The notes: generated from the letters alone by a model not told the origin. 64,000 nucleotides of DNA from Vicinamibacteria bacterium (GCA_963800785.1 CAWDCH010000013.1:141877-205876); one strand, 5' to 3'. Shown: positions 1,651 to 62,610, numbered from the stretch's first letter. Numbers and translations: made by a program.

Positions 1651-3833
<2,183 letters not shown>

Positions 3834-3925: not shown

Positions 3926-4735
3926 ACGGATCGGACAAGTCACGGACGGACGCGGATGGCTATGGATCAATAGAAGGTCGCGGAGGGACGCGGGCTACAC
4001 GGACTGATTTTGGGCGGCCAGTCACGGGCAACGCATTGCAGGGGTCGCGCCGAAAACGGAAGCGGGCCAGAGGTCACGGACAAACGCGGATGGTCACGGA
4101 TCGACAGAAGGTCACGGAGGGACGCGGACGGTCACGGATTGACAAGGTCACGGACGGACGCGAACGGTCACGGATTGACAGAAAGTCATGGACAGACGCG
4201 ACGCGGACTTCACGGACTGTTGAACGGGCCGGTCTCGGGCGGCGCATGGTGGGGTCGCGCCGGGGACGGTAACGGATCGGAGGTCACGGACAGACGCGGA
4301 TGGTCACGGATCGACAGAAGGTCAAGGAGGGACGCGGACTACACGGACTGTTGAACGGGCCGGTCTCGGGCAACGCATGGTGGGGTCGCGCCGGGGACGG
4401 TAACAGATCGGAGGTCACGGACAGACGCGGATGGTCACGGATTGACAAAAGGTCACGGACGGACGCGGACGGTCACGGATTGACAGAAAGTCATGGACAG
4501 ACGCGGACTTCACGGACTGTTGACGGCACCGGGCTCGGCACGCATCGTGGGGTCGCGCGTCGGCCGGAGGCCGACGCGGGTCGAGTCGCGAGTGCGGACC
4601 GCAAGCCGCCTTCACCATCCCCACGCGGCTTGCGATCCGCACTCACGACTCGACTCAGCCGCGCGTCGCGTGGCGCGACCCTCGTCGTAGGGTGATGCCC
4701 GGCTGCTTCCGTGAACTTCCGTGTAATCCGTGACC
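3926..4735. repeat. composite word-repeat array (GTCACGG words, 131-bp higher-order repeat, inverted terminal words, 30-bp-arm hairpin)
   Basis: 14 exact and 8 one-mismatch GTCACGG words on the plus strand. Module CACGGACTG...GGGGTCGCGCC occurs at 3998, 4211, 4342 and 4511. Inverted words CCGTGA/CCGTGT/CCGTGACC lie at 4706-4735. Hairpin 4580-4609 / 4625-4654. Confidence 0.9.
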
Positions 4736-7698
4736 TACGAACTTGAAAGAACGGCGACGGGACAAGTGCTCAAGACATTGCCCAAGGCGATCGTAGGGCC
4801 GCTGTCCGTATCAGTAATCGACGGCACTTCGCCCGTGACGACGTTGCGGAGGCCGCTTGCGAAGCTGTCGGGGATACGGACAATCGTGTCCTGCCAAATC
4901 GTATCGGTGATCGGCCAGCCATTCTCGCTGTGAACCGTTGACGCGACGAGGCGCGGCACAATGGTGATAAGGCCACGGCCTCCATCATGACGCGCGTAAG
5001 CCACCACCCGTGCCCAGCGCGCCCCCTCCACGTGTAGCGGCACGTAGCTGCCGTTGAGCATGAGTTGCGGGTGCTGTTGCCGCAGCCGCAGCAACCGCGT
5101 CGTCAGCCACAGCTTGATTCGCCCATCGGGCCACGCCGCCAACAGATCGCTGACGATCGCGCTGAGCGCCAGGCCTCCTGGCGACTCTTCGCATTCCGAG
5201 GTTCCGATCGCGGCCTGAAGCGAGGCAAGGATGTCCCGACGCGCCGCGAAGTCGATCCGCTGGCGGTTGTCGGGATCGACCAGGTGCAGATCCCACAGCT
5301 CGTTCCCCTGGTAGATGTCGGGCACACCAGGGGCCGTGAGTTTGATTGCAAGCTGTGAAAGGCTGTTCACGACGCCGGCGCGAGCGACTCGTCTGGCAAA
5401 CGGCACGAACGCAGGAAGGAATCGTGCGGCATGGGGGCCGTCGAGCGTCTTCTCAATGAAGGTCGTTACCGCGGCGCCGTAGGCCTCATCGGGTGCGATC
5501 CAGCTCGTTCGCAACTTGGCCTCCCGCGTCGCCTTCATCAGAAACGCCGTAAGGCGTGCCGACAAGCCCTCGGGTGCCCTCGACGGGATGGGCGCCCCGG
5601 CGAGTTCCGCTGGCCACACGGACAGCAGCGACTGGTAGTACAAATACTCGTCGTTGTGCTCCGGTGCGGGCAGTGCATCGACGGTGTTTCGCAGTCCCGC
5701 GTTCATCCGCGCCCAGCGCGAGACTGTCTTCGCCCATTCGTCGGCCAGCTCCGACAGCACGTTCAGCCGCGCGCGCGCATCCTCCCCGCGCTTCGTATCG
5801 TGCGTGGCGGTCGTGGTCATGCTGAACGGCCACCGGTCGCGCCGCTCCGCGTTGGCTCGATGGAACGCGTCGATCGTCGTCATCGGCGCCGAGGGGTTAC
5901 CGCCGACCTCGTTCAGCGAGAGGAGCACGTTGTAGCGATAGAACGCCGTGTCCTCGACACCCTTCGCATGGACTGGCCCCGTGAATTGCTGAAACCGCAT
6001 GGTGAACCTGAGACGCTGGTCCATCGGATGGTCCTGCAGCGCAACCGTGTCATCGTGTCTGGCGCGTGCCGCCGCCGAGCCGAGCACGTGGCGGAGAAAG
6101 CCGAACGTCGCGCGTTCAGCAGCAGGATTCCGTCGATCTGCATGCTCGAACGCCGTCTCGATCGCGCGGCGATCGGCATCGCTGGCGCCGTACTCGTCGA
6201 TATAGGTGCGATACACGGGCAAGGCTGCGGCAACTTCCTGGAGCGCGTGGCTCAGCGTCCCGAGCGTGAAGTCGCGTGTCCTCCGATCCTGGTGCGCCAG
6301 GTCGTAGAGGGCATGCGCCAGCACGTTCAGCTCGCTGGCGAGCGTCGTCTGCATGATCAGGCGCTTCCCCTCGACGACCTCTTCTTCGAAGCTCTCCTGA
6401 CGACCGGTAATCCGGCGATATTGGCGCCGCAGACGCCAGAGCCCGTCGGGGTCCACGAACAGACTGTTCACGAGATTCAGGAAGTCGTAGCCCGTCGTGC
6501 CGTGAATCGGCCATGCCGGCAACGATTCGCCTGGCGAGAGAATCTTTTCGGCCAATACGTAGAGCGGCAATTCGCCCGACAGCGAGAGGCTGGAATCCGC
6601 GGAGGCGGGATCGGCGTCGCCATCGGCCGCGAGACGCTGGAGATTGGCAAAGTAGCGTGCCGGATCGAAGAGGCCGTCCGGATGATCGACGCGCACGCCG
6701 GTCACGGCGCCCTCGGCAATCAGCTTTTTCAGGAGACCATGCGTGTCGCGAAACACACGCGGTTCTTCCATGCGCAACGCGGCGAGGTCGTTCACATCGA
6801 AGAACCGCCGATAATTGATCTCGTCGAGCGCGGTTCGCCAGAAGGCGAGCCGGTAAGGCTGATGCTCGAGCAGATCGTGCAGGGGGTCGAAGCTCGCAGC
6901 ATTGCCAGGGGCACCATTGAAATGCCGGACCGCGGCCTCGATGTGTGCTGCGATCTCACCAGAGATCGCAACCAGCTGCAGCAGGCGCCGTCGCGCGACC
7001 TCCTTCTCGCGTTTTCGTTCCTCGATCCGCTCGGGTGTGCGCTCGTCGTACGTCGGCAGGTTCTGCAACGCGGACACGATGCTGAGGAACTCACGCACCT
7101 CGCCGTTGTCTTCGCTCACCCTCGCGCGAAGCGCGTCGAGGTTGTGGCGGTACACCGAGGGCGCCTGCCGCGGGTTGATGGGCAGCATGTGGTCGAAATA
7201 GCGGAGCTGCAGCGCGCCGCTCTCGAACGCCAGCTGCAGGTGGCCCCGTTCGAGCTCGTACCCGTACTGATCGCCCAGGATCGGCAGCAACAGCTTGTCG
7301 CGCATCGCCGACACCACCGGTGTCCAGTCGATGTCGAAGTAGCCAGCGTGCTCGGCGGACGGGCCGTTTTCGAGGACGTCGAACCACCATGCATTCGTGC
7401 GCGCATCCGTGCCCATGTGGTTGGGTACGAAGTCGAGCACTTGTCCCATCCCATGCGCCTGAAGCGCCGCGACAAACGCCTGATAGTCCTCATCGTCGCC
7501 AAGCTCGGGATTGAGGGCATTGTGGTCGCTGATGTCGTAACCGTGGAGCGTGCCTGGCGTCGCCTTCAGATACGGCGAGGCGTAACAGGCGCCGATGCCC
7601 AGCGTTGCTAAGTAGGGGACGAGCGCAGCCGCATCACGAAACGTGAAGCCTGTATGAAACTGCAGGCGATAGGTGCTCGACGGCACTCGCGCGATCAC
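4735..7698 (-). CDS. treY: malto-oligosyltrehalose synthase (TreY)
   Basis: 987-aa ORF. N-terminus [39 protein letters not shown], plus [10 protein letters not shown] and [12 protein letters not shown] overlap with the treS stop. Confidence 0.9.
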
Positions 7699-24671: not shown

Positions 24672-24776
24672 GCAAGGACGAAGGACGAAGAATGAGGGAC
24701 GAAGGACATGCGCTGAACAAGGCGTCCCTCGTCTCTCCTCCGTCGTCCTTCGTCCCTCGTCACTCGTCCCTCGGCC
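24671..24776. repeat. word hairpin (GGACGAAG / GAGGGACGA words and their complements)
   Basis: GAGGGACGAAGGAC (24694-24707) is perfectly complementary to GTCCTTCGTCCCTC (24744-24757). Further complementary words flank this core. Confidence 0.7.
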
Positions 24777-25885
24777 TCTACCTCCACATCCCCTTTTGCG
24801 CGCATATCTGCAACTACTGCAACTTCAACCGCGGTCTGTTCGATGAGCAGTTGAAGCGGGAGTATGTCGACGCGCTGGTGCAGGAGATTGGGTCGTCGGG
24901 CGACGGGTCTGCGGCAGACACTATTTTCTTTGGTGGCGGCACGCCGTCACTCCTGTCGGGCGAGGATGTCGGTCGGTTGATTGACGCCTGTCGCGACGCC
25001 TTCGACGTCGCGCCTGATGCCGAAGTCACCCTCGAAGCCAATCCCGAAACGGTGAGCGTCGAGAAGATTGCGGGCTACCGCGAGGCCGGCGTCAACCGCA
25101 TCAGCCTGGGCGTGCAATCCCTGGACGATCGGGAGCTCGCACGGCTCGATCGGCAGCACAATGCGGCGCGTGCGCGCCAGGCGTTGACCGACGTGCGGGC
25201 AGCCGGCATCGACAACGTCAGCCTCGATCTGATGCTGTGGCTGCCACAGCAGCGGCTCGAGGACTGGCAGTCGACGATCAACGGCCTCATCGAGCTCTCG
25301 CCGGACCACGCGTCCCTCTATCTCCTGGAGCTCTATCCCAATGCGCCGTTGAAGGAGTCCATCGCGCGGGAACGCTGGTCGCTTGCGCCCGAAGACGACG
25401 CGGCGGACATGTATCTGTGGGCGCTGGAACGCCTGGACGAAGCGGGGTACGAGCAGTACCAGATCTCGAACGTCGCGCGCGCCGGCCGAGTCGCGCGTCA
25501 CAACCTGAAATACTGGCGCGACGGGTCGTGGATTGGATTCGGGTGCGGCGCGCATTCGACGCGCGGCGCGTGGCGATGGGCGAACGTCGCCGGAACACGC
25601 GACTACGTTACACGTGTGACGAATGGCCTCTCCGCCGCCGACACGCGACGGCAGCGGACGGAGCAGGAGCGCCTGGAAGATGCGCTCTTCACCGGATTGC
25701 GGCTGTCCGAAGGCCTCGATCTGGACGTCATCGGCGGCCGTTACGGGGTCGATGCCTGGGACCGCTACGGCGACAGCCTCCGGCTGCACGAATCTGCCGG
25801 ACGTCTCAAGATCGACGGCCACCGCGTGCAGCTGACGCGCAGCGGAATGCTGGTCGCCAACGACGTGATGACCGTTTTCATCTAG
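24692..25885 (+). CDS. hemW: radical SAM heme chaperone HemW / coproporphyrinogen-III oxidase-like protein
   Basis: LGLYLHIPFCAHICNYCNF (CxxxCxxC), FFGGGTPS and GVNRISLGVQS. The nearest in-frame start upstream of the conserved core is ATG 24692, which lies inside the hairpin repeat. Confidence 0.85.
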   Translation: MRDEGHALNKASLVSPPSSFVPRHSSLGLYLHIPFCAHICNYCNFNRGLFDEQLKREYVDALVQEIGSSGDGSAADTIFFGGGTPSLLSGEDVGRLIDACRDAFDVAPDAEVTLEANPETVSVEKIAGYREAGVNRISLGVQSLDDRELARLDRQHNAARARQALTDVRAAGIDNVSLDLMLWLPQQRLEDWQSTINGLIELSPDHASLYLLELYPNAPLKESIARERWSLAPEDDAADMYLWALERLDEAGYEQYQISNVARAGRVARHNLKYWRDGSWIGFGCGAHSTRGAWRWANVAGTRDYVTRVTNGLSAADTRRQRTEQERLEDALFTGLRLSEGLDLDVIGGRYGVDAWDRYGDSLRLHESAGRLKIDGHRVQLTRSGMLVANDVMTVFI

Positions 25886-26553: not shown

Positions 26554-26710
26554 AACAACGAGCTCAGAGTGACGAGCTCTGAACGCGGAACCGCGAACGA
26601 CGAACGAACGCGGGGGTTCGTCCCCGTTCGGCGGTCGTCGCGCGGCGTTCAGAACTCGTCACTCACAGTTCGTCGCTTTGAGCTCGTTGTTCGTTGTTCT
26701 GAGCTCGTTG
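26554..26710. repeat. long imperfect word hairpin (ACGAGCTC / ACGAACGA words) between convergent genes
   Basis: GAGTGACGAGCTCTGAACGC (26566-26585) pairs with GCGTTCAGAACTCGTCACTC (26646-26665). Inner and outer words are also complementary. Confidence 0.75.
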
Positions 26711-26719
26711 TCCGTAAAG

Positions 26720-29838: not shown

Positions 29839-30687
29839 GTGGCCTCGCGGTCCATCTCCTTCGGTCCATTCGAGCTGATACCCGTCAACGACGGATACTT
29901 CGCGCTCGACGGCGGCGCCATGTTCGGCGTCGTGCCGAAGCCGCTCTGGGAGAAAGTGGCGCCGCCGGACGCGCGCAACCGCATCCGCATGGCGATGCGC
30001 GCCTGGATCGTCCGCGGGGGCGGCCGGAGCGTGCTGATCGACGCCGGTTGCGGCGACAAGCTCGACGCCAAGTCGGCGGATATCTACGGGCTCGATCGCG
30101 CACACCGTCTGGAGCATGCGCTCCACGACGCGGAGGAAACCTCGTCCACGATCGATCTTGTGATCGCGTCACACTTGCATTTCGATCATGCCGGCGGTTT
30201 CACGAAGCGCGTCGATCAGGCCGTGGTACCGCGATTCCCGAACGCGCGCTACTCGATCAGGCGCGGCGAGTGGGAAGATGCGCTCCACCCGAACGAACGG
30301 AATCGCGCCAGCTATCTCGTCGAGAACTACGTGCCGCTTGCCGACGCCGGCATCGTGGACTTCGTGAGCGATGATGGCCCGGTCGCGCCGCATCTGACCG
30401 TGCGTCGGACCGGCGGCCACACGATGCACCACCAGATAGTGCTGATCGAGGCCGGCGGGCAAACGGCAGTCTTCGTGGCGGATCTGCTGCCAACGGCAGC
30501 GCATCTGCCGCTGCCGTACATCATGGGCTACGACCTCTATCCGATGGACACGCTCGCCTTCAAACGTGTGTTCCTGCGCGAAGCGGTCGAGCGGGAGTAC
30601 TTGATCCTGTTCGAACACGATCCGGAGATCGCGGCCGGGTATATCCGCGAGCGGAATGGCCGGTTGTCGATTGAGCGGGCGTTGTAG
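29839..30687 (+). CDS. MBL-fold metallo-hydrolase
   Basis: 282 aa with ASHLHFDHAGG and downstream His/Asp ligands. Confidence 0.8.
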   Translation: MASRSISFGPFELIPVNDGYFALDGGAMFGVVPKPLWEKVAPPDARNRIRMAMRAWIVRGGGRSVLIDAGCGDKLDAKSADIYGLDRAHRLEHALHDAEETSSTIDLVIASHLHFDHAGGFTKRVDQAVVPRFPNARYSIRRGEWEDALHPNERNRASYLVENYVPLADAGIVDFVSDDGPVAPHLTVRRTGGHTMHHQIVLIEAGGQTAVFVADLLPTAAHLPLPYIMGYDLYPMDTLAFKRVFLREAVEREYLILFEHDPEIAAGYIRERNGRLSIERAL

Positions 30688-30730
30688 GGACCTATGTCCC
30701 TGTGTCCTCATGCCCCTCGGAGGTGACTGA

Positions 30731-31585
<855 letters not shown>

Positions 31586-31594
<9 letters not shown>

Positions 31595-31759
31595 GTGCCA
31601 AGTGCTAAGTGCTAAGTGGAGTGGGGAGTGGCTAGTGGAGAGTGGTTGCAGGACTGGTCAGATTGTCGCAGCTACGAGGAGCGGGGGGCTAGTCAGCCAC
31701 CACTTCCCACGACCCACTTCTCACTCCACTTAGCACTTGGCACTTAGCACTTGGCACTG
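31586..31759. repeat. word hairpin family copy 1 (CAGTGC[YAAGTGC]n AAGTGGAGTG... arms, ~58 bp each, ~50-nt core)
   Basis: The left arm (31586-31645) and right arm (31697-31759) are near-complementary. Both arms closely match the arms of the element at 61171-61353. Confidence 0.85.
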
Positions 31760-31771
31760 CTTTGGAGGTCC

Positions 31772-45502: not shown

Positions 45503-45965
45503 ACAGACCACAAAACTGCAGACCACGGACCGCAGACCACAGGCCGATTCAGGCCCGCGGTCCTTCGGCGTCGATCACGACGATCAACTTCTGCAAGGTC
45601 CTGATGGTCTGAACGCTGTAGTTTTGCAACGAGATTGAGCGTCCTCACTCAGTAAAGACTGGCGCCTGCTCAAGTCGATTAGGTAGTCGGTTTCGCAGGC
45701 TGAGGATAGGGCTATGTCCAGGAAGCGTCGGTAATCGCGCTCCGATGTCCTTTGCAGACCCTTCGACGATATTGGCCGGAATCGACATTGCGGTACGTCG
45801 TAACTGGCTTTGTATTACGAACCGTCCGGTGACCGGGAACGCCTTGGTCTCTTCATAGATGCAAAGCGCGAGGGCATCGGCGAGGTGGAAGGCCTTGAGC
45901 TTTCTGTGGTCGTGTCTGTGGTCTGGAGTCTGTAGTCTGGAGCCTGTAGTCTGTAGCCTGTCACT
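45503..45965. repeat. inverted word arms (CAGACCACRG left, CTGTGGTCT/CTGTAGTCT right) enclosing a four-helix-bundle gene remnant
   Basis: The left arm (45503-45543) and right arm (45903-45965) are built from mutually complementary words. The enclosed gene fills the space exactly. Confidence 0.75.
45549..45914 (-). pseudogene. four-helix-bundle protein (23S rRNA intervening-sequence protein / Avd-like family), no start codon and at least one frame shift
   Basis: My three-frame reading gives DHRKLKAFHLADALALCIYEETKAFPVTGRFVIQSQLRRTAMSIPANIVEGSA, then a shift near 45751-45753. It continues RTSERDYRRFLDIALSSACETDYLIDLSRRQSLLSED, then a probable second shift near 45640, then SISLQNYSVQTIRTLQKLIVVIDAEGPRA*. 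Confidence 0.75.
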
Positions 45966-47195: not shown

Positions 47196-47319
47196 CCTGC
47201 GGGCTTCGGGCTACGGGCCACAGCTTGCCCAAGCTAAAGCTTGGGCCTACGACTGCCTGCGCAGCGATCGTACGCAGGCCCGAGCTTCAGCTCGGGCAGC
47301 CTGAAGCCTGAAGCCTGCC
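47196..47319. repeat. compound hairpin element (outer GGCTTCGGGCT / AGCCTGAAGCC words plus three perfect short hairpins)
   Basis: Hairpins are at 47227-47246 (8 bp, loop TAAA), 47255-47279 (7 bp) and 47278-47297 (8 bp, loop TTCA). The outer words are complementary with one G-U type mismatch. Confidence 0.6.
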
Positions 47320-55546: not shown

Positions 55547-55658
55547 GAATCCGCAATCCGAATCGGCAATCTAACTCTGCACTCTAAATCCGCAATCCAG
55601 TCCGCAATCCAATCCGCGATCCAATCCGCAATCCACAATCCGCAATCCGCAATCCGAA
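55547..55658. repeat. direct word array (AATCCGC / AATCCGCAATCC), no complementary arm
   Basis: About 12 same-orientation copies or variants of AATCCGC run up to 2 nt before the lpxI ATG. Confidence 0.7.
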
Positions 55659-60532: not shown

Positions 60533-61159
60533 ATGTTCGCAGCCTTCAGACGGTCGCTGTTACCTCTTGTTGTCGCCCTCGTGTTCGCCTACGCGGCCGG
60601 CATCGCTCCGGCCTCCGCGCAGTCGCCCGCTCCCGCTGCGCCACCATCTGCCGCCGATTTGCCGATCAATCCGGAAGATCCGGAGGTCAAGTCCGGCACA
60701 CCGGGAAAAGACGTGATCTTCCTGCCGACGCCTCAGGAGGTGGTGTCGGCGATGCTGGATCTCGCGAAGGTCACTGATGAGGACGTCGTGTACGACCTCG
60801 GTTCGGGCGATGGCCGCACGCCAATTACCGCAGCAAAGGAACACGGCGCGCGCGGTGTTGGCGTCGAGTTCAACCCGAAGCTCGTGGCTCTGTCGCGCCA
60901 GAACGCCGAGAAAGCCGGCGTCGCCGATCGCGTGCGCTTCATCAACGCGGATCTGTTCCAGACCGACATCTCGGAAGCCACAGTGGTCACCCTGTACCTG
61001 CTCAGCTCGCTCAATCAAAAGCTGCTGCCGAAGCTGCAGCACGAGTTGAAACCAGGCACCCGAATCGTCTCCCACGCCTTCTCGATGGGCGACGAGTGGA
61101 AGCCCGATGCGGAGCGGACGGTCAACGGGAAGACGATCTACCTGTGGACAGTCAAATGA
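60533..61159 (+). CDS. class I SAM-dependent methyltransferase with N-terminal signal/anchor sequence
   Basis: LLPLVVALVFAYAAGIAPASAQ, then VYDLGSGDGR (motif I) and VEFNPKLV...RFINADLF. Confidence 0.8.
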   Translation: MFAAFRRSLLPLVVALVFAYAAGIAPASAQSPAPAAPPSAADLPINPEDPEVKSGTPGKDVIFLPTPQEVVSAMLDLAKVTDEDVVYDLGSGDGRTPITAAKEHGARGVGVEFNPKLVALSRQNAEKAGVADRVRFINADLFQTDISEATVVTLYLLSSLNQKLLPKLQHELKPGTRIVSHAFSMGDEWKPDAERTVNGKTIYLWTVK

Positions 61160-61170
61160 ACTGACGCTGA

Positions 61171-61353
61171 CAGTGCCAAGTGCCAAGTGCCAAGTGGAGT
61201 GAAGAGTGGAGAAGTTTGGAGTGGTGGGTATGAGTTACGTCGTTGCCGTTCTTGTTTGATTGGTCGCACAGTCGACGATCTGACCGATTGAGCCACTAGT
61301 CACTTTCCCACTTCTCACTCCACTTCGCACTTCGCACTTGGCACTTGGCACTG
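61171..61353. repeat. word hairpin family copy 2 (same arms as 31586-31759, ~64-nt core)
   Basis: Left arm CAGTGCCAAGTGCCAAGTGCCAAGTGGAGTGAAGAGTGG...; right arm ...CCCACTTCTCACTCCACTTCGCACTTCGCACTTGGCACTTGGCACTG. Confidence 0.85.
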
Positions 61354-61368
61354 TACAGTTCTTCCCCA

Positions 61369-62610
61369 GTGCTGGTCCTCCGCGCCCGGTGGATTCTTCC
61401 CATCGTCGATCGTCCTCTCTTGAACGGTTGGTGCGCCATCGATCGTGGCCGGATCGCCGCAGTGGGGCGCGCCGGTGCCGTATTGCCGTTTCGAGATGAC
61501 GCGCCGCTCGTCGATCTCGGCGACATGGCGGTACTGCCGTCGCTGACGAATGCACACACCCACCTCGAGCTGTCGTGGATGCGGGATCGGATCCCGAGAG
61601 GCACGCGGTTCACCGAATGGGTGCGGTCGATGCTGCGAACGAGACGCGGCGAGACACCGTCCGACGCGGCGGTCGTCGCATCCACCGAGGACGCGATACG
61701 CGAGATGCGCGCGGCCGGCGCCGGACTCGTCGGCGACGTGAGCAACTCCCTCGTGAGCGTCACCCCGCTCCGCCAGAGCCCGCTCCGTGGCGTTGTCTTC
61801 CACGAACTGCTGCGCCTGGCGGCGGCGGACGCTGAAACCGTGCTCGAACAAGGCCTCGATGCCGTGAAGCGTTGCGGTATCTCGCCTCGCGTGCCGGTCA
61901 GTCTCGCACCGCATGCACCGTATTCGGTATCGCCACGGCTCTTTCAAGGCATCCGCGCGGCGCAGGAACGTACCCCATTTCTGCCGTCGACGGTGCATCT
62001 CGCCGAGTCTCCGGAAGAAACAGAGCTGCTGGCCACCGGTGACGGCCCGTGGCGCACCCTTCTTCAGGATCTCGGGGCGTGGGACCCGGCGTGGACGCCG
62101 CCCCGCACCGACGCCGTGTCGTATCTCGATCAGATGAAAGTGCTGAACTCGCGCCTGCTCGCGGTGCACGGCGTGCAACTGGACGATCGGGCGCTCGAGC
62201 GTTTGAAGAGCAGAGGGACGACGATTGTGACGTGTCCGAGGAGCAATGCCTATGTCGGTGTGGGGTATCCACCGATCGATCGGTTCTATCGCTCCGGGGT
62301 AGCGGTGGCCATCGGCACCGACAGTCTTGCCAGCAACGACGATTTGAACCTCTTTTCAGAGCTGGAGTTACTGCACCGCCTGGCGCCGTCGGTGCCGCCC
62401 CGGGCGCTCCTGGAGAGCGCCACGGTGACCGGAGCGCGGGCGCTGGGATTTGGGGCGGAAACTGGTACGATCGAACCCGGTCGCGACGCCTCGCTCATCG
62501 CCGTCAATCTCCCGTCAAACGTCGTCGACGTCGAGGAATACCTGGTGAGCGGGATCGCTGCGGGCAGCGTGCGCTGGGTTCAAGACATAATCGCAGAAAC
62601 AGGGTTGTGA
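61369..62610 (+). CDS. amidohydrolase (aminofutalosine deaminase / chlorohydrolase-like family)
   Basis: LPSLTNAHTHLELS metal-binding motif and C-terminal IGTDSLASN. The probable start is GTG 61369, because the track start 61345 lies in the repeat arm. Confidence 0.8.
   Translation: MLVLRARWILPIVDRPLLNGWCAIDRGRIAAVGRAGAVLPFRDDAPLVDLGDMAVLPSLTNAHTHLELSWMRDRIPRGTRFTEWVRSMLRTRRGETPSDAAVVASTEDAIREMRAAGAGLVGDVSNSLVSVTPLRQSPLRGVVFHELLRLAAADAETVLEQGLDAVKRCGISPRVPVSLAPHAPYSVSPRLFQGIRAAQERTPFLPSTVHLAESPEETELLATGDGPWRTLLQDLGAWDPAWTPPRTDAVSYLDQMKVLNSRLLAVHGVQLDDRALERLKSRGTTIVTCPRSNAYVGVGYPPIDRFYRSGVAVAIGTDSLASNDDLNLFSELELLHRLAPSVPPRALLESATVTGARALGFGAETGTIEPGRDASLIAVNLPSNVVDVEEYLVSGIAAGSVRWVQDIIAETGL

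Follow-up and report, generated by a model that had tools for sequence, protein, structure and literature searches.

An imperfect palindrome fills a gap in a menaquinone operon

The window analysed here, a stretch of 64,000 nucleotides from a Vicinamibacteria genome, carries downstream of mqnC a SAM-methyltransferase-like gene (stop codon TGA, 61157-61159) and an aminofutalosine-deaminase-like gene (probable GTG start at 61369), all on the + strand and within a co-directional operon; both of these genes belong to the menaquinone pathway. The gap between these two genes is filled by a single element, called copy 2 to distinguish it from a relative in the same window, copy 1. Positions 61158-61361 form one imperfect palindrome almost throughout, and the probable GTG start lies 15 nt beyond the last of its repeated words. 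The preliminary description had placed a hairpin at 61171-61353; the hairpin is indeed there, with true ends slightly wider, out to a GAACTG...CAGTTC pair. The features of copy 2 are given below, followed by two other elements of the window with which it is compared (4HB, four-helix bundle).

61158-61361, no strand assigned: copy-2 element, 204 nt, delimited by the extent of self-complementarity, the RNA fold and orthologous elements
61158-61163, + strand: outer terminal GAACTG, pairing with CAGTTC at 61356-61361 and overlapping the upstream stop codon
61171-61229, + strand: left arm, with three outer AGTGCCA words (61172-61192) and the junction AGTGGAGTG (61193-61201)
Within 61171-61229, + strand: inner part of the left arm, degenerate GTGNNNN words followed by the inner stem GTGGTGGG
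61238-61254, - strand: stretch that may descend from the last codons of a 4HB gene, sense CAAGAACGGCAACGACG, compare ...ARTARRR in full-length copies; a weak match
61262-61289, - strand: 5'-leader remnant in the core, sense AATCGGTCAGATCGTCGACTGTGCGACC, holding a 13-nt motif (61273-61285)
61292-61353, + strand: right arm, with inner stem GCCAC, inner words and the junction CACTCCACT (61316-61324)
61325-61352, + strand: outer words of the right arm, four TNGCACT with N = C, C, G and G
31585-31760, no strand assigned: copy 1, same arm family, leader remnant on the + strand with the motif at 31656-31668, orientation opposite to copy 2
45503-45965, - strand: CAGACC-type heptamer arms around a PF05635 gene (about 45552-45902, two frameshifts to read through)

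The inverted repeat of copy 2 spans 61172-61224 and 61293-61345, and its outer arms (61170-61196 and 61328-61354) are 96% complementary. A long stem built from terminal inverted repeats is predicted in both copies (z -8 to -13), with folding energies of -101.9 kcal/mol for the + strand of copy 2 (z -8.9), -90.6 kcal/mol for its - strand (z -8.1) and -126.4 kcal/mol for copy 1 (z -13.3 against shuffles). No PF05635 ORF was found inside copy 2, and no rRNA or other Rfam family was detected, either in the window at gathering thresholds or in the element alone at E<=1. Copy 2 is thus not an insertion into 23S rRNA, as it sits between two protein-coding genes.

Two copies share their arms and carry one motif on opposite strands

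The two hairpins had been described as having the same arms, and our analysis confirmed this: the arms, of 53-65 nt and 81-96% complementary, are made of AGTGCNA heptamers, and in both copies each arm contains an exact match to AGTGCNAAGTGCNAAGTGGAGTG, with 0 matches expected in shuffles. The right-arm string quoted in that description is correct in both copies, its dashes falling at the variable position of the words. The motif GGTCAGATYGTCG also lies, as claimed, on opposite strands of the two cores, with exact matches at 31656-31668 (+) and 61273-61285 (-); there is no third site in the 64 kb, and about 0.39 matches of this type would be expected by chance even with one mismatch allowed. 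The core lengths reported earlier, 64 and 50 nt, are of the right order, repeat detection giving 68 nt for copy 2 and 46 nt for copy 1, values that shift with the arm boundaries chosen. At copy 1, the upstream gene stops at a TAA (31592-31594) that belongs to the first AGTGCTAA word; this upstream gene ends differently in L006 and L021, the two loci that carry orthologous copy-1 elements.

The arms define a family of complete hairpins

A scan of species-representative genomes with the arm pattern returned at least 93 loci. Among the matches listed, four Vicinamibacteria MAGs account for 72 of 80 loci and a single MAG for at least 30, and about 75 elements are complete hairpins of 95-230 nt made of identical ordered parts: small elements with inverted ends, present in many copies as MITEs are. 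An exact arm match was absent from viral contigs.

These hairpins could conceivably be plain heptameric simple sequence repeats (SSRs) produced by slippage, G-quadruplex (G4) repeats, or an intrinsic terminator, with no identity as elements. Heptameric SSRs are over-represented in bacterial intergenic DNA, an excess ascribed to polymerase slippage or G4 formation (PMC4692102), and word number does vary between orthologues, the left arm of copy 2 having one word fewer than that of its orthologue L031 (3 against 4). However, a non-repetitive junction, an inner stem and a leader remnant are common to dozens of copies, and AGTGCNA contains no run of three or more G, making G4 formation impossible. 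The intrinsic terminator was rejected, as a terminator scan found none at copy 2, the stem is followed by GTACAGTTCTTCCCC without a T-tract, and the site lies inside a co-directional operon. We consider simple repeats of any of these kinds an extremely unlikely explanation.

Several loci show other arrangements. In L071, two complete short elements with similar GGGCAACCCCTCAGGC cores (4969-5140 and 5625-5802) lie around one ordinary-looking gene. In two Chloroflexota MAGs (L020, 1-330; L076, 700-960), AGTGCAA, AGTGGAGTG and GATGAAC words are organised as tandem 75-88-nt higher-order direct repeats without hairpins. L015 carries a left arm alone (7414-7593), with no partner inside 1.6 kb, and the matching position of the window (30659-30722) holds a 63-nt spacer with TGTCCCT-like words, a presence/absence difference between related genomes.

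Gene-bearing members encode a PF05635 protein

Seven elements with these arms bear a gene (L063, L014, L039, L094/L095, L184, L185 and L187). The preliminary description had proposed that the short cores might be deletion remnants of a 4HB gene, a reading that calls for forms with both arms and gene; such forms are therefore present, intact in L063 (124 aa) and frameshifted in some of the others. The frameshifts of L185 and L187 are both in JGI metagenome contigs, and some frameshifts in these 4HB genes may be assembly errors. A PF05635 ORF lies inside L063, L014, L095 and L184-L187. The gene product scores 43.8 bits against PF05635, for a cut-off of 33.8, and matches PDB 2rld (E 1e-12); its 71 close database relatives are all PF05635. 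No transposase family was matched in the full-length relatives, of which the PF05635 gene is the sole gene, and PADLOC defence models gave 0 matches for this 4HB protein as for that of the 45503-45965 element.

Read along the sense strand of the gene, full-length elements display a constant order: an arm, the inner stem GTGGTKGC, AGAATCGGTCAATTCGGGCTGAATTCGTCGCAGCAGG... in the leader (about 170 nt), a TGGAAC-N5-TTGCA box, the ATG and the gene, GGCGTTGCCCCTCACT, and the second arm. This conserved box, which follows the sigma-54 -24/-12 pattern and precedes the 4HB start codon by about 20 nt (7555-7575 in L063), occurs in all Vicinamibacteria full-length elements (L063, L039, L014, L095, L184, L185 and L187). 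It is not shared by 4HB genes at large, being present at only 3 of 77 diverse loci, and is therefore specific to the AGTGCNA-arm subfamily.

The core motif derives from the 5' leader rather than from the 3' end of the gene

With at most 3 substitutions allowed, GGTCAGATYGTCG is present in twenty-one short cores, in every case a few bases inward of the inner stem GTGGTKGC; other short cores have GAGGGGCAAC...GTTGCCCCTC or GGTTGCCAACGCC. In full-length elements, the counterpart of the motif is the opening 25-45 nt of the 5' leader, beside the arm upstream of the 4HB gene, and the short-core consensus, GTGGTKGC-WGAATC-GGTCAGATCGTCG-CAGGTACG, equals the start of the full-length leader with a gap of about 11 nt. 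When the short cores were aligned without anchoring to the whole interiors of three full-length elements, with dinucleotide shuffles as controls, p-values were near uniform and none was significant (0.16 and 0.52 for the two window copies). The power of this alignment is low for matches shorter than 20 nt, and it was therefore replaced by end-anchored tests. In these, the motif side of the 21 short cores reached a mean score of 13.4 against full-length leaders, compared with 1.0 +/- 4.1 for shuffles and 1.7 for the opposite end of the same cores. Taken individually, copy 1 gave p ~0.006 and copy 2 p ~0.001, the latter with a score of 17 against the leaders of L063, L039 and L095. From the end-anchored test, we conclude that the motif is a remnant of the leader, on the 5' side of the gene.

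The preliminary description had instead related the motif to TTGATCGTCGTGATCGAC, at the 3' end of the 4HB gene in the 45503-45965 element, so that cores with GGTCAGATYGTCG would be 3'-end remnants of a gene of that kind. TTGATCGTCGTGATCGAC does occur at the 3' end of this reading frame, on the minus strand near 45570-45587 (45578). However, the sole part of it shared with the motif, GATCGTCG, occurs 22 times in the window, for 13 expected, which reduces the resemblance to chance level; moreover, the 45503-45965 element is built of other words and its PF05635 gene belongs to an unrelated subfamily, and the motif maps to the 5' leader in elements with the same arms. A 3'-end-like match exists elsewhere in the copy-2 core: its non-motif end, CAAGAACGGCAACGACG, resembles the 3' end of the L094 gene, CAAGAACGGC-CCGACG (p ~0.012 uncorrected), and the L185 3' end, ATCGTAAGTCTTAGCAACCACT, resembles GACGTAACTCATACCCACCACT of copy 2. 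Comparing cores with 4HB-gene 3' ends against shuffled controls, the check suggested in the preliminary description, thus gave a weak positive for copy 2 and no similarity for copy 1 (p ~1), with p<0.05 in only 3 of 21 cores. A gene 3'-end remnant at the non-motif end of the copy-2 core is suggestive only, and we judge it very improbable that the motif itself derives from a gene 3' end.

Taken together, these results partly support the earlier interpretation, which was right in spirit and wrong in detail, since the motif is 5' leader. The shared arms and leader support the cores as gene-less relatives of the 4HB element and as its deletion derivatives. The change may nevertheless have gone either way, by loss of the gene or by gain of a gene in a hairpin, given the negative unanchored comparison and the weak 3'-end matches.

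Orientation is conserved in alignable orthologous pairs

As the arms are mirror images, orientation is visible only in the leader remnant, which relative to the flanking + strand genes is sense in copy 1 and antisense in copy 2. The idea that the arms are near-palindromic and that the core marks the orientation held up across the family, both orientations relative to flanking genes being found among the 21 motif-bearing short elements. In a strict set of tandem gene contexts, the leader sense is co-directional with the host genes in 6 elements and opposite in 1; it is also opposite in copy 2 and L031. Orientation is conserved in every alignable orthologous pair (copy 1 with L006 and with L021, copy 2 with L031), and no site was seen in both orientations among the orthologous pairs compared.

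The opposite cores of the two window copies could also have arisen in place, if recombination between the inverted arms turned one of the two cores around. A segment bounded by long inverted repeats is a classic target of such inversion, and the interior is not static, as cores at the copy-2 site differ among species. This possibility is countered by the constant orientation of the orthologous pairs; with no site found in both states, in-place flipping is unsupported, and we hold it to be very unlikely. As a separate observation, the motif lies on the minus strand of its own contig in 18 of the 21 motif-bearing short elements (loci L006-L092), an excess that may be due to chance or to assembly orientation.

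Word sequence is conserved at old sites

The copy-2 site was occupied in all five related genomes examined (5/5), with no empty orthologous site among them, and the copy-1 site in three. At the MqnC-methyltransferase-deaminase site, elements with AGTGCNA arms lie at 1657-1985 in L188, 1654-1825 in L189, 1645-1825 in L190 and 1358-1548 in L031. In the genes flanking orthologous pairs, four-fold degenerate sites are 48-54% identical. By contrast with this, the fixed positions of the outer words are 90-100% identical between orthologues (42/42, 48/48 and 38/42), while the N positions match in 3/7, 3/8 and 2/7 cases and the remaining element sequence is 74-84% identical. Judged by their occupancy in species with near-saturated synonymous sites, both window copies are old.

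Across elements, N positions of a left word and its partner form 17 Watson-Crick pairs, against 16.7 expected, and the stem is, on this pairing count, a succession of 6-bp blocks split by an unconstrained base. Since the fixed positions are kept and N is free and unpaired, it is the sequence of the words that is kept, beyond mere pairing. Two explanations both fit: a sequence-specific reader with a 7-nt register, or homogenisation of the words by conversion or re-insertion through the arms. Core types at the copy-2 site vary between species, suggesting that cores are replaced or converted by way of the arms, and homogenisation gains weight from a site that is occupied in 5/5 genomes with differing core types. 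Conversion or re-insertion through the arms, which these differing cores allow, would explain perfect word conservation without selection.

Other word families surround PF05635 genes in the window and in metagenomes

The product of the 45503-45965 gene matches TIGR02436 (E 1e-22) and PF05635 (E 5e-23), and in BLASTP is not similar to the 4HB proteins with AGTGCNA arms (E 0.11). We assign this element to the same class, with a different word family; its frameshifts could be assembly errors. Further repeats are scattered over the window. Intergenic hairpins of other short words lie at 24674-24777, 47200-47317 and 26554-26715 (AAGGACG/CGTCCTT; CGGGCTA.../AGCCTGA; 21-nt GAGCTC-containing units). 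L006 also has the element found at 26554, and L015 has a plain GC hairpin at that site (3376-3470). A higher-order repeat with 38-nt and 131-nt periods and 10-nt words of the GGTCACGGA type occupies 4071-4517, and is followed by a 30-bp hairpin with 93% complementarity (4580-4654). Just upstream of a gene, 55548-55656 holds a one-sided tandem array of about 15 AATCCGC units without an inverted partner. The reverse complement of this unit, GCGGATT, is the commonest word around 4HB genes in the metagenome sample described below.

For this sample, metagenomes were scanned with an alignment of the AGTGCNA-arm 4HB subfamily, and 80 loci were kept, with proteins 36-64% identical and DNA of 30-67% GC. 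The best short period was 7 in 124 of 150 flanks, usually in inverted arrays, and the period-7 self-match had a median of 0.75 beside the gene, versus 0.43 at 900-1150 nt. The upstream flank matched the reverse-complemented downstream flank with a score of at least 40 at 45 of 74 loci, versus 9 of 74 in the direct-orientation control. Words differ by lineage, GGATTGC being the commonest, with GGAGTGC, GGAATGC, GATTTTG and some 8-9-mers; in a Chitinophaga genome, a 4HB gene with a GATTTGG array sits between hemF and hemB.

Elements abut gene ends and show no strand bias in RNA stability

The elements abut gene ends; the neighbouring genes are in tandem at 19 sites, convergent at 7 and divergent at 3. 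Sequence just outside the arms, compared over 142 element ends, is enriched 10-17 fold for TCAGT and CAGTT, and CAGTT/CAGTG is a candidate target motif. Apart from 1-2 nt by which the arms extend, the flanks hold neither a palindrome nor a duplication, direct repeats being judged by eye, and complementarity between ten-nt flanks equals the null (3.3 versus 3.2); both a pre-existing hairpin target and a target-site duplication were therefore rejected. At the RNA level, the sense strand was the more stable in 11 and the less stable in 8 of the 19 tandem-context elements (mean difference -2.1 kcal/mol), and sense and antisense folding energies did not differ in the 21 motif-oriented elements. Strand selection on the RNA through G-U asymmetry was likewise rejected.

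These data bear on whether the hairpins are host-selected structures similar to REPs, serving as mRNA stabilisers, operon processing sites, attenuators or nucleoid-protein sites, in which case the short forms would be ancestral and the 4HB gene a later passenger. Such a role would suit the excess of short over gene-bearing elements (about 75 to 3 among the arm-scan matches listed), the persistence of orthologous copies across species with perfect word conservation, and the position directly after gene ends, with so few divergent cases. Heptamer arrays in Xanthomonas are likewise 83% position-conserved between two species; they have no assigned function and were not linked to a gene (PMC4692102). 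However, PF05635 subfamilies each have their own words, in phyla of 30-67% GC, which points to joint movement of gene and arms as a unit; frameshifts in several gene copies are in line with decay toward gene-less forms; and RNA stability shows no strand bias. Host-selected hairpins acquiring a passenger gene thus seem to us rather unlikely, although a serious alternative.

Discussion

We favour, as the probable identity of copy 2, a gene-less, non-autonomous member of a palindromic heptamer-word family that is abundant in Vicinamibacteria (Acidobacteriota) and resembles rRNA intervening sequences (IVS), a reading in which function and mobility are inferred by analogy. In a full-length element, 3-5 outer AGTGCNA words are followed in each arm by the AGTGGAGTG junction, by three inner words of looser sequence and by a short inner stem. 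Between one arm and its mirror image lie the leader (about 170 nt) and the gene for the PF05635 protein (23S rRNA intervening-sequence protein, a four-helix bundle). The short forms retain both arms together with the opening 25-45 nt of that leader, which include GGTCAGATYGTCG. Co-transcribed with the mqn operon, copy 2 would form a roughly 60-bp stem interrupted by a mismatch at about every seventh position. The parallel with the stems of rRNA IVS suggests that this stem might be an RNase III substrate or an element of mRNA processing or stability. The six fixed positions of each word would be maintained by a sequence-specific reader or by conversion between copies, and not by base pairing alone, and spread may rely on a trans-acting factor, possibly the 4HB protein that intact copies encode. 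PF05635 proteins are not known to have nuclease or transposase activity. The Avd accessory proteins of diversity-generating retroelements belong to the same four-helix-bundle fold family, form pentamers and bind nucleic acids.

The closest parallels are the 23S rRNA IVS of Leptospira, Coxiella burnetii and Brucella, which interrupt helix 9, 25 or 45 and are transcribed within the pre-rRNA. Their inverted repeats around a PF05635 ORF make a long stem, with heptamers and an ORF that often decays or has deletions. In Coxiella, the terminal inverted repeats are cut by RNase III, tandem GACAGAT heptamers stand at the 5' end in 2-3 copies whose number varies among strains, and the S23p (PF05635) ORF decays; the IVS has been suspected of being selfish or mobile (PMC4990558). 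The Coxiella paper also cites an older proposal in which the ORF acts as a mobility factor. Unlike these IVS, copy 2 lies outside rRNA, between protein genes of an operon, and lacks the ORF; the present elements also have much longer arrays, with 7-9 words per arm, and dozens of copies per genome.

A second close parallel, with which the cyanobacterial STRR heptamers are grouped, is offered by the GGGAATC repeats of Xanthomonas and the GGGGAYT repeats of Nostoc: about four units with one or two free positions, arranged in inverted stem-loop pairs, intergenic, transcribed on either strand, kept in position among relatives and variable in length. Xanthomonas has about 185 GGGAATC-type arrays per genome, mostly of four units, with 70-75 inverted pairs (Rehm et al. 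2015, PMC4692102). Copy 2 and its relatives share with them intergenic tandem 7-nt units in inverted pairs at conserved positions. Unlike these repeats, which have been read as G-quadruplex formers and have no gene, the arms described here share junction, inner stem and leader with PF05635 elements. In a search that mostly covered sources other than subscription journals, the Coxiella IVS report was the only link found between heptamer arrays and PF05635 genes, and no paper was found that joins the Coxiella and Xanthomonas observations.

Among mobile repeats, REP/REPIN sequences with their RAYT genes are similarly short extragenic palindromes in tens to hundreds of copies, mostly located just after genes and without target-site duplications, a rarer form of which flanks a single gene in inverted orientation. 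Here, by contrast, the flanked gene encodes a PF05635 4HB protein and not a RAYT, a Y1 (IS200/IS605-like) transposase, and the repeat is an array of heptamers instead of a single palindrome of 20-40 nt. Like MITEs, the short elements are small, gene-less and multi-copy, have terminal inverted repeats and apparently come from a longer gene-bearing relative, but they lack a target-site duplication, and their parent element has no recognisable transposase.

These comparisons raise the possibility, which we put forward tentatively, that PF05635 proteins and arrays of 7-nt words, with six read positions and one free, constitute one widespread protein-plus-site system, in which the protein would recognise its own words and a selfish palindromic element would leave gene-less hairpins behind. 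With six fixed positions and one that is free and unpaired, the pattern of conservation specifically hints at a factor that reads sequence in a 7-nt register. For annotation, it is relevant that genes upstream take their stop codons from such hairpins, that genes downstream start 7-15 nt away, and that the hairpins may pass for other repeat classes. If true, the protein-plus-site system would account for rRNA intervening sequences, for the intergenic excess of heptamers and for the scattered 4HB genes wedged into operons. The role of the S23p ORF, the heptamer excess and the stand-alone 4HB genes, so far separate puzzles, would then be joined as parts of one class of elements.
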